Shown here piece after piece: positions 6,844 to 60,217 of a DNA stretch of 64,000 bases. The notes under the pieces are model-generated. The model did not search any database. It saw only the letters and a program-made list of their open reading frames with translations, and was not told where the DNA came from. The stretch's first letter is position 1. Every line of letters starts with the position of its first letter. The stretch is from a virus: positions 1-64,000 of IMG/VR virus record IMGVR_UViG_3300017963_000029; one strand, 5' to 3'. The position numbers and the translations under genes were made by a program.

Positions 6844-9800
6844 TTACTTCCTTCCCAACAATAGCGCGATTGCGCCCAAAGCGACACCCCCTATGGCGAG
6901 CGGCAGGACCATTCCTGCGCCTTCTTTTTTCGGCTCGGGGGGAGGAACCGGTGGAGGTACCGGAACCGGTACCGGAACGGGAATTGGGGGCGGCGGAGGG
7001 GGAGGTGGCGGCGGTGGAGGAATCGGCACCGGAATCGGTACGGGGATCGGCGGCGGAGGCGGAGGTGGCGGCGGTGGAGGAGGTGGTGGGGGAGGCGGCG
7101 GAGGAATCGGCTGATCTTCCGGTTTGCGCCCTATTTTATTATTGGCAATCAAGGTGGCCAGCTGCTGATTGAACAACAGGAAGTCGTCCGTCTCGCTCCG
7201 GATCATCTGCGACAGCCCCTGGCGCGCGACCGCCTCGGCCCCGGCCTTGGCCACCACCGTATTTCCCATCACCAGGGCGAGCTTCCGCCAGTTCTGTCCC
7301 GTCAGGAGCGCCTCGGAAAGCGGTTGATCCAGCGTGTCCAGGGCCGTGGCCGAGAAGGATACCGCGTCCTCAAAATACGCCATGAGGGTTCCCAACTCTG
7401 CCGCGTCGGGATACGTCTTTGTCGCCGTGGCATCCATCACCTCCCGCAACTCCGGGTTCTCCTCAAGCATGTTGCGCGCTCGAGCAATGACGCGCCGGCC
7501 GGCACCCAGCCACTTCAAGTAGATGTCGCTCGCGGTCTCAGTAAGCCCCTCGGTGTTGGAAACACGCTTCACGGCGCCCATGATCTTCGGCCCGAAGGCC
7601 TCCATGACCTTGATGGACTCTGCAAGCCGCGACCAGGACCTCTTTGCTGCCTCCGGGATGGTAGGAGGAGGCGGTGGAGGAGGTGGTTGATCCGGCTTTT
7701 TCAGGCTTCGACGATAGTCCCGCGCCGAGATCTTGATTCTCTTGGCCTCAAGCGGTGTCAACAGGACGGTCTTCTTGTCCTTGGACACCTTGCGAGGCAG
7801 CGCGATCTTCCACGCCGGTACCAATCTCATGCCTTTGCCGACCGAGTCCGGGTGCAGCGCATCGATGAGCCCCTGCTGGGTGCTCTTCGTCCACTTCCCC
7901 GTCAGCTTGCCGGCGACCGCAACCTTGTAGCCGCTGAACGTCAGTGCCTGCTGAACGTGCAGGACCTTGACCGGCGTGTTCATCTTCTTCATCAACGCCC
8001 GGACGCGCTTCTGGAGCTTCTTTTTCGGATCTTCCGGCGGTGTCGGCGGCGGAGGCTTCTCGATGCTCTGTCGATAAAGCTCCGCGCGCTCCTGCATCGC
8101 GTCATGCCACCTCGGGGTGGTGAGCAACGTCATCCGATCGACAGACACCACCATCGGTACCATGGCCTCGAGAACCGGAATGGCTGCAGGCTTTTTGTGA
8201 GCTTCGATGATGTACTGGAAGTACCCCCGCTTGGTGGCGTCATCCCAGGTGCCGGTGGCCTTCACCGTGGGGGCGATCTTCTCCTTGAGGACCTCGGTCC
8301 ACAAGATGGCCTGCTGAACCGTCAGCACCGGTATCTCCACCGTCTGAAGCTCTGCCAGGCGGCGAGCCTGCGCCTTGATATCGTCCTCTTCCGGCTTTTC
8401 CGGTTCATCAGGCTTCGGCGGCGGAGGCTTGGTGCCGGCCACAATCGCCTCAAGCTTGTCCGCGATGTTCTTTCTGAGTCGGGTGATGGTCTTGCGGTTC
8501 TTGGAAACGCGGTACCCGGTATTCACCCCGTGGTCGATCTTGAGGATGTACGTGTTGAGCGAAGCCGCGGTCACGTCGTCGAAAAACGCCCCGGGACCGA
8601 TCTTCTTACCGATGGCGGCAAAGGCCTTCTTCACCTTGGCCACCGAGATGCTCACTCGAGGAGGCGGCTTGGGGGCACCTACCGACGCCTTCTGAAGTTC
8701 CTCGCCTATCGCGCGCGGAACCCTGATCGACTTGCGGTTCTTGGCAACGACGTACTCCACCGTCGAGCCTGGCGGAGTGTATCGTTCTTGAAAAGCGTTC
8801 TCAGTCCTCGAACCCCAGTACCCGTCGGTGTCGAGAAGAGGTTTCACGCCCTTACCGTTGAGCCCGGCCTGGACGGTGGAGACCTTGAGGACGACCGTGG
8901 CCGGCTTCGGTTTCGGCTCGGGCTTCGGCTTCGGTGGCCGCGGTGCCCGCGCATCCGAAGTCATCTTCAAATAGGCCTTCTCGTTGACGCGTGCCTCCTT
9001 CGACGAGACCTTGACGAAGAGAGGGTTGAGCCCGCGTCTCTGGGCCGACTTCTGCCAGGCCGCCTTTGTCGCGGCATCGGGGCGCCCGGTGGGCTTTACG
9101 GTGCGCTTTCGCCACTGGAGCCCGTACAGAATGGCCTGAAGCTCTGCGGCATTTTTGACCACGGTACCGGGCCGTGGTTTAGGCTCGGGGGGTGGTGCCG
9201 GCGCAGGAATAAAAGGCTTGGGCTCGGGCTTCGGCTTCGGTTTGGCCTCCTCCACCGCCAGCTGGTACCCCTTGTCGAGCTCCGCGGCGACCCGCTTGTC
9301 GATCTTCACCACATCCGCCTTGGCCGTCTTCTCAACGTTGGGGATGGCGTTTATTCTGTCCGCGGCGATCTTCACCGCCTCGATGGTGGGGGCGTCCGGG
9401 CGCCGGGTTATCTCCACCGGTGTGCCCTGGAGCTTTCCCTTCTTCACCCAGTAGTTGAACCCTCGCTGGATTTTCACCACCGCGATGGGAACCATCCCTG
9501 CGGCGCGCTTGGCCTTCATGCCGGCGGCGGCCTTCAGCTGCAGATAGGTCCGGTGAGAGACGGTGGCAATGAACGGGCCCACGCGCTTGAACAACGGATC
9601 GAGCTTCCGGGTCTTGGCCGACGTCTCCCAGGCCCCTTTTGTTTTCGGGCCGTATTTCTTGTCGATGGCTACCTTCGCCGCGCTCCAGCCTAGACCGCGC
9701 AAGATCTTCTGCGCCATCTCCACCTTGATGTTGACCAGCCTCTCGGCCTTGGTGGGGGCTTCCTTCGGCTTTGACACGAAGGGTACCAGCCGACTCCCGG

Positions 9801-11254: not shown

Positions 11255-11917
11255 CTACTTGGTGACCGCGGCCCTGATCAAGCCGTGGAGATCACACGTC
11301 ACGAGCACCGGCTGCTCGATCTGCGGATCCTCGTAGGTCAGACCCGCGTTGGTCAGCCACTGCCGGGCGTTGAACTCGAGCACGCCGTCCAGCTCGTGGT
11401 TCTGATTCAAGAGCTGGCGTTTGACCAACCTGGCCGCGCTGGCGGTGGCGGGCACGCCGATGGAGAAGATACCGGCGTCCGTCTCGGTGGTGGTGCCGTA
11501 CATCCCCAGGCCTGAAGGAAACCGGATACTCGGACCTTCGTCTTGCAAAATTTCGTTTATCCGGAGCCTGAAGAACGAGTTGTCGACGCACTTTTTCACG
11601 TCGCGCGGCACGGTGACCACATTGCCCGTCGCCAGCCTCCAGTAGAGACCGATGCGGTCGAGCACCATCGACTCGCCGGCGCTGAGCTTGCGCGGGGTGC
11701 GGATGTTCGTGTCACACTCGCGCTTTCCCTGGATGTCCTGGAAGAACACGTACTGCGTGCCCGCCGGGATCCCGGTGGCCGGCGGCCCCAGCGGGGTCGC
11801 GTCGATGAGCACCGTGTCGTATTTCGAACTTTCACGGAAATCTCGTATGTTGACGATCTGACCGGTGTCGCTGTCGCGAAACAGGCCGGGCTGGCCTTCG
11901 ATCGGCATCAATGGCAT
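11255..11917 (-). CDS. Putative major capsid protein (single jelly-roll type)
   Basis: Strong RBS (AGGAGAAAGACATG); YDT...YVFFQ...DTN...L.AG pattern; beta-rich 220 aa; preceded by a membrane-protein gene and followed by a hairpin. The fold is inferred, not computed. Confidence 0.6.
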   Translation of the reverse strand: MPLMPIEGQPGLFRDSDTGQIVNIRDFRESSKYDTVLIDATPLGPPATGIPAGTQYVFFQDIQGKRECDTNIRTPRKLSAGESMVLDRIGLYWRLATGNVVTVPRDVKKCVDNSFFRLRINEILQDEGPSIRFPSGLGMYGTTTETDAGIFSIGVPATASAARLVKRQLLNQNHELDGVLEFNARQWLTNAGLTYEDPQIEQPVLVTCDLHGLIRAAVTK

Positions 11918-12675: not shown

Positions 12676-13383
12676 CTATGTTGGAAATACTTTCGAATCT
12701 TCCACCATCCCCCGCGGCGCTTCCCATCCAAGAGGCATGTTGACTGATCCATCTAAAGAAATCCACCGACTAGGGTTTCTACGCGGTAGTCCCACCTGCG
12801 CGTAGATGTGATTCCACTCCGGTGCGCCCTTCGTTCTGATTACTTTGAAACGGCAAGGTAACCCGATGGCCGCCGCACTCGAGCAAGCAAGAACGGCGTA
12901 ATCGTCGCAGTCACCACTACGTAAAGCGAGGGTATGACGCGGTTTTTGGTATGAATCAACGCGAGTAATATCAGATGTATACCGGACGTTATTGCGAATT
13001 GCCTTGAACAACGCCTGAAGCTCTCGTCCGTTATTTTTTTCTGGCACGCACCAGGTACCACCGCACTTCTTGTTGATGGCCCGACGGGCAAACTCGTAGA
13101 TGACCGGGTCGCGTTTTCCCTGATCCACGAGCTTCTGCAGGTGACGTATACGGTCCTCGAGGTTTTTTATTTGGTACGTTCTGAGGCGTACTCGCCCTAT
13201 GCCGGTATCCCCCACCTGCGTGGAGGTGAGAACCGACCCCATCCCTCTTTTACTCCCGCGCCGCGGTCGCCGGCGAGGACGCGGACGCGCGGGGTTCCCG
13301 TTTTTTATACGCTTTACGCCGCTGGATATCTGGTTCAATCCGAGCGCGATGCTGAACAGCCCCAGCGCGAGATTGCCGAGCAT
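12676..13383 (-). CDS. Transglutaminase-like cysteine protease (putative virion maturation protease)
   Basis: Catalytic triad motifs SGDCDD (Cys), WNHIY (His), WISLDGS (Asp); N-terminal hydrophobic anchor and Arg-rich linker. Confidence 0.85.
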   Translation of the reverse strand: MLGNLALGLFSIALGLNQISSGVKRIKNGNPARPRPRRRPRRGSKRGMGSVLTSTQVGDTGIGRVRLRTYQIKNLEDRIRHLQKLVDQGKRDPVIYEFARRAINKKCGGTWCVPEKNNGRELQALFKAIRNNVRYTSDITRVDSYQKPRHTLALRSGDCDDYAVLACSSAAAIGLPCRFKVIRTKGAPEWNHIYAQVGLPRRNPSRWISLDGSVNMPLGWEAPRGMVEDSKVFPT

Positions 13384-52034: not shown

Positions 52035-52411
52035 ACTTCGATACGGCATTTGAGGAGTACCTCGACGTCCGCAACAAACTCCGCGAGCAGCAGGGGGCAC
52101 TGGATAAGAAGAGAAGCGAGATGGCCGCGCTGGGCCGCGAGATGGAGAGCATGAAGAAGCGGTATAACGCCACGCGCCGACAGCTGGTGAAGGCTCAGGA
52201 CGCCCTGGTCCCCGTGCTTCGCAAGGAGGTGGCGTCGTTTCCGCTCCCGGACGAGGACAAGAGCGCCTACGAGGAGGGTACCCGGAACGTTCTCAGGAAG
52301 ACGCCGGAACAGGAAGCTGCGGCGCTCGACAAAGTCATTCCGCCTGCGGAAGATGATGCTGAAGAAGCCTCCACACCCGAAGCGGTAGAGGTTGATGTCG
52401 GCTCGCCATAA
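52031..52411 (+). CDS. Coiled-coil protein
   Basis: ATGA overlap; heptads. Confidence 0.55.
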   Translation: MNFDTAFEEYLDVRNKLREQQGALDKKRSEMAALGREMESMKKRYNATRRQLVKAQDALVPVLRKEVASFPLPDEDKSAYEEGTRNVLRKTPEQEAAALDKVIPPAEDDAEEASTPEAVEVDVGSP

Positions 52412-52736
52412 GGATCCCGTCGGGCCTCCGGGGACACTTCTACGTTGCAAGGGTCCCGGGTGTAAGAACACCGTCAAGTACCGTTCACGCAAGTGGACCA
52501 ACGAATGGATGATGACCTGGGTGGAGAGCAAGGGAAAGCTGTTCGATGTGTGCTCCATGGAGTGCGCGGATGCCCTGAAGGAGAAACATGCCAAACACGC
52601 CGCCGCGGTAGCACGGCGGGATTTTCGAGAGGCAGATAAATTCGATACAGAGGTTCTTTTGCCCAAAGGCAGTGAACCTCCCCTTCAAGTATTTTTTCGA
52701 GACATCAAGCAGAAGAAGGCCAAGGAGAAGGCATGA
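52392..52736 (+). CDS. Zn-finger protein
   Basis: CKGPGC...VCSMEC. Confidence 0.55.
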   Translation: MMSARHKDPVGPPGTLLRCKGPGCKNTVKYRSRKWTNEWMMTWVESKGKLFDVCSMECADALKEKHAKHAAAVARRDFREADKFDTEVLLPKGSEPPLQVFFRDIKQKKAKEKA

Positions 52737-57338: not shown

Positions 57339-58018
57339 TGACTACCGTCTCCCAGCACATCCGCCGGCGGCTCCTGTTCCTGGGCAAGCTCGGGCAGTCC
57401 GAGTGGTCCTACGAGTTCGAAGAGCTAATGCGCAACCGCCTCATCATGGGTGCGTTCCGGTACGGAAAGCTTAGAGCGCCAGGGAAGCCCCAGTTCGACC
57501 GGGTGGCCTACGCCATCCGCTGCCTCGAGCAGTTTCGACAGACCGGGAACCTAGAGCACCTGGTGGACGCGGCAAACCTCTGCCTCGTGGAGTTTGTGGA
57601 GGGGAAGCATCCCCACCGACACTTTGCTGCGGTGGACGGGGGAGACCACGCAGAGAAGGTGTTGGACGCGGCTGAAAAGGTGCGCGAGGTGACGACGGAT
57701 GAGGACGCGAAGGTTCTTGAGGGGGCTCGAATGGATCGCGTACTGAGACCTCCCACGGTGCCACCGGAAGGTGTGGACCTCACCGAGACGCGGATGATGC
57801 AGGCCATCGGCAAGCGTCTCCAGAACTGGAACGGCCTGTGCGTTCTCTGCGGTGGCTGGGGGCCGTTCAGGAAACCGAAGGATTCGAAGTACGAGTGGAC
57901 GGACGTCTGTGCGTGGTGCCACCACGTTCCTGATCCAGAAAGTAGCGGGCCTTATAAACCTCTATCGATAGCAGAACGAGAGGATTATCCGAAGGCACCC
58001 GACGGGGGACCAAAGTAA
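57338..58018 (+). CDS. Hypothetical protein, N-terminal helical domain resembling dATP/dGTP diphosphohydrolase-like phage proteins, C-terminal Zn finger
   Basis: [10 protein letters not shown]...[14 protein letters not shown]; CVLC...CAWC. Confidence 0.5.
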
Positions 58019-58425
58019 TGATCCGAAAACGCCGTAACAGAACGCTCTCCCGCCTCCGGGTACGGAAGAAGGACAAGCAGTTTCTCAAGCAGTTCGACTA
58101 CCCGGAGGGGGTTCGTTTTCTCCCCCTGACGCGCCAGGAGTGCCTGACCACCGAGAGGCCGTGCCCGTTCGTGTCTTGTCGGTATCACCTGTACCTGGAC
58201 GTCACCGAGAAGGGCTCGTTGAAGCTCAACTACCCCGACCAGGAGCCTTGGGAGATCTCCGAGTCGTGCGCTTTGGACGTCGCGGATGCCGGCGACCACA
58301 CGCTCGAGGAGGTGGGACAGCTGCTGCAGGTCACCCGCGAGCGCGTCAGGCAGATCGAAAAGGGGAGTAAAGAGAAGCTTGAGGAGGACCCGGACGTGCT
58401 CCGGTTGCAGGAGGAGGCGGCGTGA
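58018..58425 (+). CDS. Sigma-70 region-4-like HTH protein with Cys cluster
   Basis: [12 protein letters not shown]...SCALDVA...[20 protein letters not shown]. Confidence 0.85.
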
Positions 58426-58589
58426 TCAAAAGGTTGAAGCTCTTTCTGGCCAGAGCCGCGTTGTATACGTTCTGCGCCAGGGTGGATGAGGAAGGTGTTA
58501 TCCGTTGTCCGTTTTGCGAGAACAAGACGGAGGTCAAACCCACGTTTTGGTGTAGAAAATGTAATGTACTTTTGAGATAGGAGAATGAA

Positions 58590-59183
58590 ATGCCGTTAGT
58601 ACCCGTAGATAATAAGCCAGGACTGTTTCGTGATACGATTACCGGACAGGTTTTTAATGTTCGCGAGTATCGTGGCTCAGATCTTATTTTCCCTTTTGAA
58701 GGTGGTCGTGCCATACCCAAGGAGTCCTGGCAACCAGAACCAGGAGCTTCGATGGCACTACAGGCGTGGTCCTTTCTCATGTATCCATGGCCAGAGGTTA
58801 TTCCTGTCACCCTGCGAGCCAAGTTGTACGTCAATGGTGACATCATGGCTGAGGGGCCTTTATTTGCTCTAGCTGAACCTCTGGTACGTGCTGAGGACGA
58901 AGAGATACGGGAGCGGTTACGTGTCGTGGAAGAAAAAATAGAGACGCTCGAAATCGAAATGAAGGAAGCTAAAAAAGAGAAGGACCTTTCTGGCGACCCT
59001 AGAGCTGTTCACATACCTTCCAAGATTTACCCGGTTACTCGTTTAAGGAATCTAGTAGACATGAAGCACAAGTTGTGGGCAGAAATCGAGGGTCCAGGTA
59101 ATGATTTTGTACCATTGCGCGAGAAGCTGGAACTACTGGCACTTCGTTTACGCGGTGTAGGACGTGAGCCGGTGAAAGATTGA
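58590..59183 (+). CDS. Divergent paralog of the putative MCP (11255-11917) with coiled-coil insertion
   Basis: MPLVPVDNKPGLFRDTITGQVFNVREYR matches MPLMPIEGQPGLFRDSDTGQIVNIRDFR, with further colinear matches. Confidence 0.75.
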   Translation: MPLVPVDNKPGLFRDTITGQVFNVREYRGSDLIFPFEGGRAIPKESWQPEPGASMALQAWSFLMYPWPEVIPVTLRAKLYVNGDIMAEGPLFALAEPLVRAEDEEIRERLRVVEEKIETLEIEMKEAKKEKDLSGDPRAVHIPSKIYPVTRLRNLVDMKHKLWAEIEGPGNDFVPLREKLELLALRLRGVGREPVKD

Positions 59184-59289
59184 TTGATACCCCCATCGAG
59201 GTCGACTACTTCTACGCGGGCGTGATCGTCGGTTTTTGCCTCACCGTCTTGTGGGGCTGGTACTACATAAGCAAAAGGATGAGATAAAA

Positions 59290-59535
59290 ATGATAGATAT
59301 GAATATCAATATTAGTGTGACAGTAAAGGTACGTCTTACCACACTAGGTAAAGAGCTTTACGAAAAAAGTGGGAGGAATGAGTTTGTCCGTTGGGATGAA
59401 GATGGTTTGTTAGAGACCGAGTTGTGGAATTTAATGGTAGTTTTTGGTCCACATTTTAATGAGCATGTCGGTCCTTTTTTTGAAAATAATGCAATATATG
59501 TAGTGGATTTAAGGAATGATCATGACCACTCGTAA
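59290..59535 (+). CDS. Small phage protein (AT-rich)
   Basis: VKVRLT..GKE...LWNLM.VFG pattern. Confidence 0.55.
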   Translation: MIDMNINISVTVKVRLTTLGKELYEKSGRNEFVRWDEDGLLETELWNLMVVFGPHFNEHVGPFFENNAIYVVDLRNDHDHS

Positions 59536-60217
59536 TGGTGATTGGTTTCAAACCTACACCGGTAAGAAGTTCTACGTTTTCGATCCGCGCAGCGACGAGA
59601 TCGACATCGAGGACATCGCGCACTCCCTGGCGAACACCTGTCGGTTCAACGGACATACGAGTTATTTCTATTCGGTAGCGCAGCACTCTGTCCACGTCTG
59701 TAACGTCTTCGGCAAGCTCGTGGAGGGAACCGAGTTCGAGGAGAACTATCGGGCGTACCTCTGCGCGCTGTTGCACGACGCGACGGAGGCCTACGTCGGG
59801 GACATGATACGACCCATCAAGTTGTCGTTGCCGGACTACAAGGTGGCCGAGAACAACATCTGGACCTGCATCCTCAAGAAATTTGAGCTTTGGGACACCT
59901 GGCACCTGCAGGGCACGATGGATCTGCGCCTCTTCGTATCGAACCTCGTCAAGATGGCCGACGACATCATGCTGGCCACCGAGAGGCGAGATCTGCTGGC
60001 CAAGGGGCCGGGGAAGTGGCGCATCGAGGAACTCGTCGACCCCGATGATATGCTGGTTCTCCCGAAGCCTCCGGGTACCGTGAAGAGTATTTTTCTAAAG
60101 CTATTTGGGGAGCTACAATCGCGTATAGGAGAAGAAGATGCCGACACCGGTCACAGTGGTGAAAAAGGTGGTGGAGACGGCCCGGAAGTGGGTCAGGGTT
60201 CGCCGGAAGTACCGTAA
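59516..60217 (+). CDS. HD-domain 5'-deoxynucleotidase-like phosphohydrolase (YfdR/YfbR-like)
   Basis: IDIEDIAHSL...RFNGHT..FYSVAQHSV...LLHDATEAYVGD...AD..ML.TE.RDL. Confidence 0.9.
   Translation: MIMTTRNGDWFQTYTGKKFYVFDPRSDEIDIEDIAHSLANTCRFNGHTSYFYSVAQHSVHVCNVFGKLVEGTEFEENYRAYLCALLHDATEAYVGDMIRPIKLSLPDYKVAENNIWTCILKKFELWDTWHLQGTMDLRLFVSNLVKMADDIMLATERRDLLAKGPGKWRIEELVDPDDMLVLPKPPGTVKSIFLKLFGELQSRIGEEDADTGHSGEKGGGDGPEVGQGSPEVP

Follow-up and report, generated by a model that had tools for sequence, protein, structure and literature searches.

An optional, divergent paralog of a probable jelly-roll capsid protein with a preserved N-terminal arm in an 82.7-kb virus

Duplicated jelly-roll capsid proteins that co-assemble are already known, and the Sphaerolipoviridae-like viruses and Portogloboviridae have genomes of 16-31 kb with a recognisable packaging ATPase. 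In these groups, paralogous small jelly-roll shell proteins co-assemble in pairs, as described for VP16 and VP17 of P23-77, for HHIV-2 and HCIV-1, and for SPV1 (PMC6441041). A different solution is seen in the Tectiviridae, where the spike protein P5 of PRD1 and PR772 has an N-terminal domain in common with the penton protein P31 and the two co-assemble, giving a mixed P5/P31 penton in PR772 (PMC6750898). Here we describe a pair of genes in the IMG/VR virus record IMGVR_UViG_3300017963_000029, which is 82,687 bp long, has direct terminal repeats and is rated 100% complete. The window is the first 64 kb of this record. Gene A (58590-59183, plus strand) encodes 197 amino acids (aa) and is a divergent paralog of gene B (11255-11917, minus strand), which encodes a very conserved jelly-roll protein of 220 aa, the probable major capsid protein. 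Both open reading frames (ORFs) are present where a preliminary description, made from the sequence alone, had placed them.

The relationship between A and B differs from both types of described system. The two PRD1 proteins have an entire domain of about 124 residues in common, whereas in A and B only a 30-residue arm is well kept, the rest of A being a diverged full-length copy; neither P5 nor P31 is related in sequence to A or B. P5 is an ordinary late gene of the virion that all relatives carry; A is optional and is found away from the virion block. The jelly-roll chains of the Sphaerolipoviridae-like and Portogloboviridae pairs rank with the best fold matches, but each of these pairs is encoded by neighbouring genes, is essential and occurs throughout its family, unlike A and B. 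The present genome is also much larger, and canonical Walker A motifs within its recognisable ATPases occur only in two replication helicases, a RecD-like helicase and a D5-like primase-helicase. To our knowledge, no optional, fast-evolving capsid protein copy encoded outside the virion block and preserving only the arm has been described. The reading that we prefer, although tentatively, is that A may be an optional protein using the N-terminal arm that it has in common with B to attach to the B lattice.

The similarity between A and B is most obvious in this arm. The preliminary description had noted that the N-termini match, and BLASTP bears this out, with an alignment confined to residues 1-30 (57% identity, E 8e-11). 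The arm of A (residues 1-30, 58590-58679, plus strand, motif PGLFRD..TG...N.R) is the sole part of the protein that is plainly B-like, and follows the B arm motif P..GQPGLFRD..TG...NIRDFRE. The arm of B (residues 1-30, 11828-11917, minus strand) is near-invariant in the B family, with P5, G8, Q9, P10, G11, D26, F27 and E29 invariant. Among the 30 shared arm codons, the first position is identical in 21, the second in 24 and the third in only 7, which is the chance level. This argues that the peptide has been kept by selection, and not by recent gene conversion. A profile made from four A sequences was aligned by hhalign with a 28-sequence B profile over 32 columns at a probability of 98%, and A matches the B-family profile (A2) at positions 1-31 only, with 26 bits compared to 392-396 bits for true members. 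Judged from these comparisons, A is a distant paralog of the B family and not a member of it.

With a larger alignment the similarity extends much further. When the 33-sequence A-family alignment (A3) was used, hhalign aligned A with B end to end over 167 columns, with a probability of 98.7% and an E of 1.8e-16. The aligned segments include PGASMAL with AGESMVL, LYVNGDIMAEGP with LRINEILQDEGP, RNLVDMKHKL with RQLLNQNHEL, and LRLRGVGREPVK with DLHGLIRAAVTK, so that all four of the weaker anchors proposed in the preliminary description are recovered in colinear order. The alignment also agrees with its statement that A is without the YDT..FF..DTN segment, A being shorter than B there. The first 33 residues were then removed from both alignments, and the bodies alone were compared, with 150 column shuffles as the control. 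The local score of the bodies was 21.65 (E 0.0087, 123 columns) against 11.95 +/- 2.17 for the shuffles (maximum 19.3), and the global score was 23.16 against 2.63 +/- 1.92 (maximum 11.9). None of the 150 shuffles equalled either score, and the similarity of A to B thus reaches past the first 28 residues. HMMER run on the body segments alone gave none that was individually significant; its extra envelopes are colinear in both directions at the GE..L and NQNH sites, and are each individually insignificant.

The motifs compared for the B family were GESM, EGP, GVPATASA, LNQNHE and the C-terminal HGL.R.AV.K. A has GASM, EGP and L.G..R..V at colinear positions; GVPATASA is absent. NQNH has become DMKHK in this copy of A, but is present in many members of the A family. 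A has no similarity to the two other small β-rich proteins adjoining B. No match to A or B was found by tblastn among 50,697 phage records, and Pfam and PHROGs gave nothing for either protein beyond a weak N-terminal match to phrog_473, which is discussed below.

Both proteins were modelled. The AlphaFold2 model of A, from the 33-sequence alignment, has a mean predicted local distance difference test (pLDDT) of 87.4 and consists of a β-sandwich and a helix at residues 101-131. Confidence is lowest around residues 131-150 and falls below a pLDDT of 50 at residues 145-147. The model of B, from 28 sequences, is also a β-sandwich, with a mean pLDDT of 64. The two models have their elements in parallel order, strands 3-5, 12-15 and 21-x being identical, and seven fold matches are common to them (6oj0, 6h9c_D, 6h82_b, 4ind_A, 4qxl_A, 1stm_A and 1yq5_A). 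A and B are therefore predicted to belong to the same fold class, jelly-roll β-sandwiches, and both models and fold searches speak against unrelated folds. Foldseek searches of A against PDB and BFVD, and of B against BFVD, gave nothing at E <= 0.001; the ESM Atlas gave no usable match for A, the model of A in the Atlas itself being poor. Most fold-search alignments begin at residue 22-30 in both models, which places the arm outside the jelly-roll core. In the monomer model of A the arm is modelled confidently, as three short strands. A prediction of the A-B complex, with both proteins supplied as alignments, returned a score of 0.00 and carries no weight either way.

The predicted segments of A, all on the plus strand, differ in their conservation. 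The first half of the sandwich (58680-58889) contains the most conserved A-family motifs, YPWPEVIP and GPLFALAEPL, and in the A3 alignment it has a mean top-residue frequency of 0.55, the highest among the segments of A. It is followed by a long charged helix (residues 101-131, 58890-58982), assigned as helical by DSSP in the model, in which hydrophobic residues are spaced 4-3-4-3 (I106, L110, V113, I117, L120, M124). From its sequence this is a candidate coiled coil, and it may oligomerise. The preliminary description had called it a charged coiled-coil insertion: the helix is indeed predicted, but it replaces a conserved, poorly modelled loop of B and is not a pure insertion. The helix leads into a variable and poorly modelled linker (residues 132-153, 58983-59048), with a mean top-residue frequency of 0.12 and, in this virus, a 14-residue insertion relative to the closest relatives. 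The second half of the sandwich (59049-59183) ends in the strand LRLRGVGREPV, which aligns with the C-terminus of B.

By exhaustive profile search the A family comprises about 30 representative, diverged clusters, with lengths of 112-220 aa, intact frames and matches over the full length. Three close relatives (P0002-P0004) have 64-73% identity to A, also in intact frames. The family is marked by the motifs HPWPEVIP and PLF..AEPL, the helix pattern RL...E..L, often NQNH, and a C-terminal LRL.G..R. Pattern scans for close relatives of A in viral and metagenome contigs found none; scanning with an alignment of a subfamily gave six loci. The ratio of nonsynonymous to synonymous substitution rates (dN/dS, Nei-Gojobori) in the A family is 0.30 for L011 against L014 (dS about 1.0) and 0.36 for L013 against L014; these values come from distant homologs only, using the least saturated pairs, and are near saturation and rough. 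The same crude method at similar depth gives 0.16-0.4 for B. Decay of the gene, which the preliminary description had named as grounds against its reading, is contradicted by the intact frames of the relatives and the rough dN/dS of about 0.3. The sequences indicate that A is not decaying but is a full-length paralog under purifying selection.

The distribution of A was followed by searching its profile against seven B-carrying genomes or large contigs. A is present in one of them, the virus described here (G000), and a shorter third variant in another (G001, 88.8 kb). In G002 (101.9 kb) and in viral contigs of 86, 85 and 74 kb from metagenome-assembled genomes (MAGs; G004-G006), the A profile matched only the B genes of the contigs themselves. 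A is an accessory, optional gene, carried by a minority of B-carrying viruses. The G001 variant (L010 1474-1896, approximately 78758-79180 of the genome; about 128-140 aa) keeps the arm motif and a similar C-terminal strand, LRVSGYARKALF, without the A-family motifs, and adjoins a gene for a DnaQ-like exonuclease. Sequencing runs that contain the window sequence are two DNA metagenomes (sediment and seawater), perhaps the very samples from which the record came, with no RNA run among those listed.

The name capsid gene in the preliminary description was its author's inference and not an observation; we consider it probable that B is the major capsid protein. B has relatives in more than 270 clusters, with 63-95% identity, on contigs of 70-100 kb. 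It has a GC content at third codon positions (GC3) of 85%, and lies in a minus-strand block together with membrane proteins, a transglutaminase-like protein and a 1104-aa proline-rich anchored protein. The look-alikes of B in the ESM Atlas are viral, and there are weak leads to PRD1 P3 and to the P2_N/P2_C families, which we take to be the PM2 capsid protein (scores 0.77-0.78). Pfam and PHROGs searches with about 40 of the largest ORFs recognised none of these queries as a terminase, portal, tail or HK97 capsid gene. A phmmer search of the 716-aa virion-block protein against PDB sequences found no match, and nothing relevant came from a search of the literature for descriptions of these viruses. 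The gene at 12676-13383 (minus strand), two genes upstream of B, encodes a protein with a transglutaminase core (cysteine-protease-like) and a membrane segment at its N-terminus, possibly a processing or cross-linking enzyme for virion proteins. A RecD2-like helicase (1094 aa; L003 13357-16641, genome 77357-80641, plus strand) is interrupted by an intein with a LAGLIDADG domain. Contigs carrying B (L020-L023) have been binned into MAGs labelled Gemmatimonadota, Actinomycetota, Gemmatimonadaceae and Anaerolineae, and this binning is probably unreliable.

Upstream of A in the same gene string is a gene for a 135-aa sigma-like protein (58018-58425, plus strand) that matches sigma-70 region 4 (Pfam PF04545, E 1.8e-7). 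A does lie downstream of this gene, as the preliminary description had it, with an intervening 52-aa ORF (58422-58580, plus strand) whose Cys pairs are zinc-ribbon-like and which has weak zinc-finger matches only. Reading of the sequence finds a Shine-Dalgarno-like AGGAGA (58579-58584, plus strand) 5 nucleotides upstream of the ATG of A, overlapping the stop codon of the 52-aa ORF. The description of the setting as early genes, likewise not an observation, is not supported as it stands: the neighbourhood of A also contains muralytic enzymes. The order sigma-like gene, A-homolog, HD hydrolase and M23 peptidase is kept in L015 and L016, where A is 32% identical compared to 51-68% for the flanking genes; in L015 the sigma-like gene (6959-7393) and the A-homolog (7390-7896) overlap by 4 bases. 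The sigma-like gene accompanies an A-family gene in G000, L015 and L016, and searches of the viral records or contigs from G001, G002 and G004-G006 gave no copy of it. In L011/L012 and L013 the A-homolog is placed elsewhere, near the ends of the virion block.

The composition of A is also unusual. A low-GC island (58420-59540, 36-50% GC against 57.8% for the genome) starts with the 52-aa ORF and contains A and a small ORF (59290-59535, plus strand) directly after it, which has 36% GC and no family match. The lower GC of A noted in the preliminary description is confirmed, with 48.5% against 57.8% for the genome and a GC3 of 43% against 85% for B; the sigma-like gene also has a GC3 of 85%. The low-GC island and the rapid divergence of A together suggest that A has been exchanged by recombination with lower-GC relatives.

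The arm motif is not restricted to A and B. Both arms match positions 2-24 of the 75-position family phrog_473, annotated as 'virion structural protein', at an E of 0.0024 for B and of 0.05 for A. About 70 cyanophage records were matched by the 32-residue B arm in tblastn, each match being individually weak. One example is gp090 of Prochlorococcus phage P-TIM68 (L019 4001-4231), an annotated virion protein of 76 aa in which the arm motif is followed by an A-like helix, and whose gene adjoins neck and tail-fibre-assembly genes. The phrog_473 proteins of T4-like cyanophages agree with A and B position for position from residue 2 in M.L.PV.N.PGL[FY]RD..T....N, and the charged helix after their arm resembles that of A. 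They differ from A and B in being without the β-sandwich, and the profile match covers only 23 residues; they come from tailed phages with a different capsid fold, and 'structural' is an annotation label. The likeness is a shared motif and not membership of the family. A search for longer proteins headed by the N-terminal motif found none.

A further B-like piece occurs in a 114-aa ORF (52392-52736, plus strand), with Cys pairs that are possibly zinc-binding. Its last 40 residues (52605-52724, plus strand) resemble residues 24-66 of B (hmmsearch with the B profile, i-E 3.8e-5, 20.4 bits; BLASTP E 3e-6), in the form RDFRE.DK.DT ... VFF.DI..K, which is exactly the segment absent from A. The gene was not found in five relatives, and the sole match in G002 is the B gene itself. 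From its sequence this C-terminal segment seems to derive from B, as a second such piece within the non-structural region.

As the only plainly B-like part of A is an arm outside the jelly-roll core, A would be expected to engage whatever the B arm engages. We infer that the two arms have a common partner, for which the B lattice is the likeliest candidate. On this view A would be an optional minor component attached to or built into the capsid, such as a decoration, vertex adaptor or spike-like protein; its helix would drive oligomerisation as a coiled coil, and the diverged sandwich would present a new surface. The mixed penton of PR772 is a precedent for such docking (PMC6750898), and the presence of the arm motif in a virion-annotated phrog_473 protein also counts in favour of it. 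The optional nature of A and its horizontal replacement would fit host-contact proteins as well. Several points weigh on the other side. Five of the seven related genomes or large contigs have no A-type gene at all, so no essential capsid position can depend on A. The gene string of A, which is separate from the virion gene block, also contains genes for a sigma-like regulator, an HD phosphohydrolase and a dCMP deaminase, and genes in such a position are more often non-structural or involved in conflict. Conservation in the A family is highest in internal motifs, whereas a receptor binder would be expected to have a variable distal tip. Finally, the arm is confidently modelled in the monomer and could be kept for intramolecular reasons.

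The patchy distribution of A fits an optional or conflict-type role better than essential assembly, although it makes no choice among the roles that had been proposed in the preliminary description, namely decoy, chaperone, size modulator and inhibitor. The main rival reading, a serious one although on the unlikely side, is that A acts inside the cell as a mimic of the capsid protein in conflict. As a decoy, A would be made before B and would occupy a host factor or defence sensor that recognises the B arm; as a poison subunit, it would cap B lattices and block assembly of co-infecting related viruses (superinfection exclusion). Besides the patchy distribution, such a role is consistent with the position of A away from the virion block, in an island of low GC that appears to have been exchanged, its evolution about twice as fast as that of its neighbours in L015/L016, the keeping of exactly the B arm, the second B-derived fragment fused to a small Cys-pair protein in the non-structural region, and an integrase in the genome. 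Simple mimicry leaves unexplained the conserved A-specific motifs and the helix. We also know of no host sensor or target for such a mimic, nor of any established precedent for a capsid-paralog decoy, and both count against it. A broader form of the idea, which we consider unlikely, is that the first 30 residues of B are a portable docking peptide that has been copied onto non-structural proteins. A, the G001 variant and the 52392-52736 fusion would all be mimics expressed from a regulator-linked operon, blinding a host sensor or poisoning the assembly of rivals.

The confident modelling of the arm as three short strands in the monomer would also suit an A that is an exapted jelly-roll, with a job unrelated to B and with arm and C-terminal strand kept for folding only. 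The parts that A and B have kept in common (arm, GE strand and C-terminal strand) could make up one structural face, and jelly rolls are multifunctional, the fold matches including TNF-like proteins, nucleoplasmin and carbohydrate-binding modules. However, Gly, Pro and charged residues are abundant in the arm (PGLFRD..TG), which is near-invariant in B and recurs in a 76-aa cyanophage protein without the sandwich. These features argue for a binding motif over a fold requirement, and make exaptation rather improbable. Less probable still is that A is a partner of the sigma-like protein, holding or modulating the regulator and being titrated by capsid assembly, which would couple expression to morphogenesis. 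The 4-base overlap in L015, the gene order kept in G000, L015 and L016, and the absence of both A and the sigma-like gene in G001, G002 and G004-G006 (viral records or contigs) are as expected for such a partnership. Adjacency alone is weak evidence, and the A-homolog of L011 and L013 has other neighbours, with no sigma-like gene within the DNA examined. There is very little left for the view that A resembles B only at its N-terminus, by chance or through mosaicism, or that A is a decaying duplicate. It is true that pairwise BLAST and the four-sequence profile detect the first 30-32 residues only, and that body segments are individually insignificant in HMMER. This view is largely refuted by the colinear body similarity above all shuffles, by the match in fold class and element order with a high-confidence model of A, and by the roughly 30 intact diverged relatives with dN/dS of about 0.3.

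The finding suggests that the functional handle of the capsid protein is its arm. The viruses concerned form a widespread, uncultured group with genomes of 70-100 kb and without recognisable tail, portal or terminase genes, and A and B provide a concrete pair of proteins with which to ask how their particles are built or defended. If A were a mimic and not a part of the virion, it would represent a new type of viral counter-measure. If the arm were in truth a portable docking peptide, it would reveal a capsid-paralog decoy or exclusion system in undescribed large viruses that have no recognisable tail genes.
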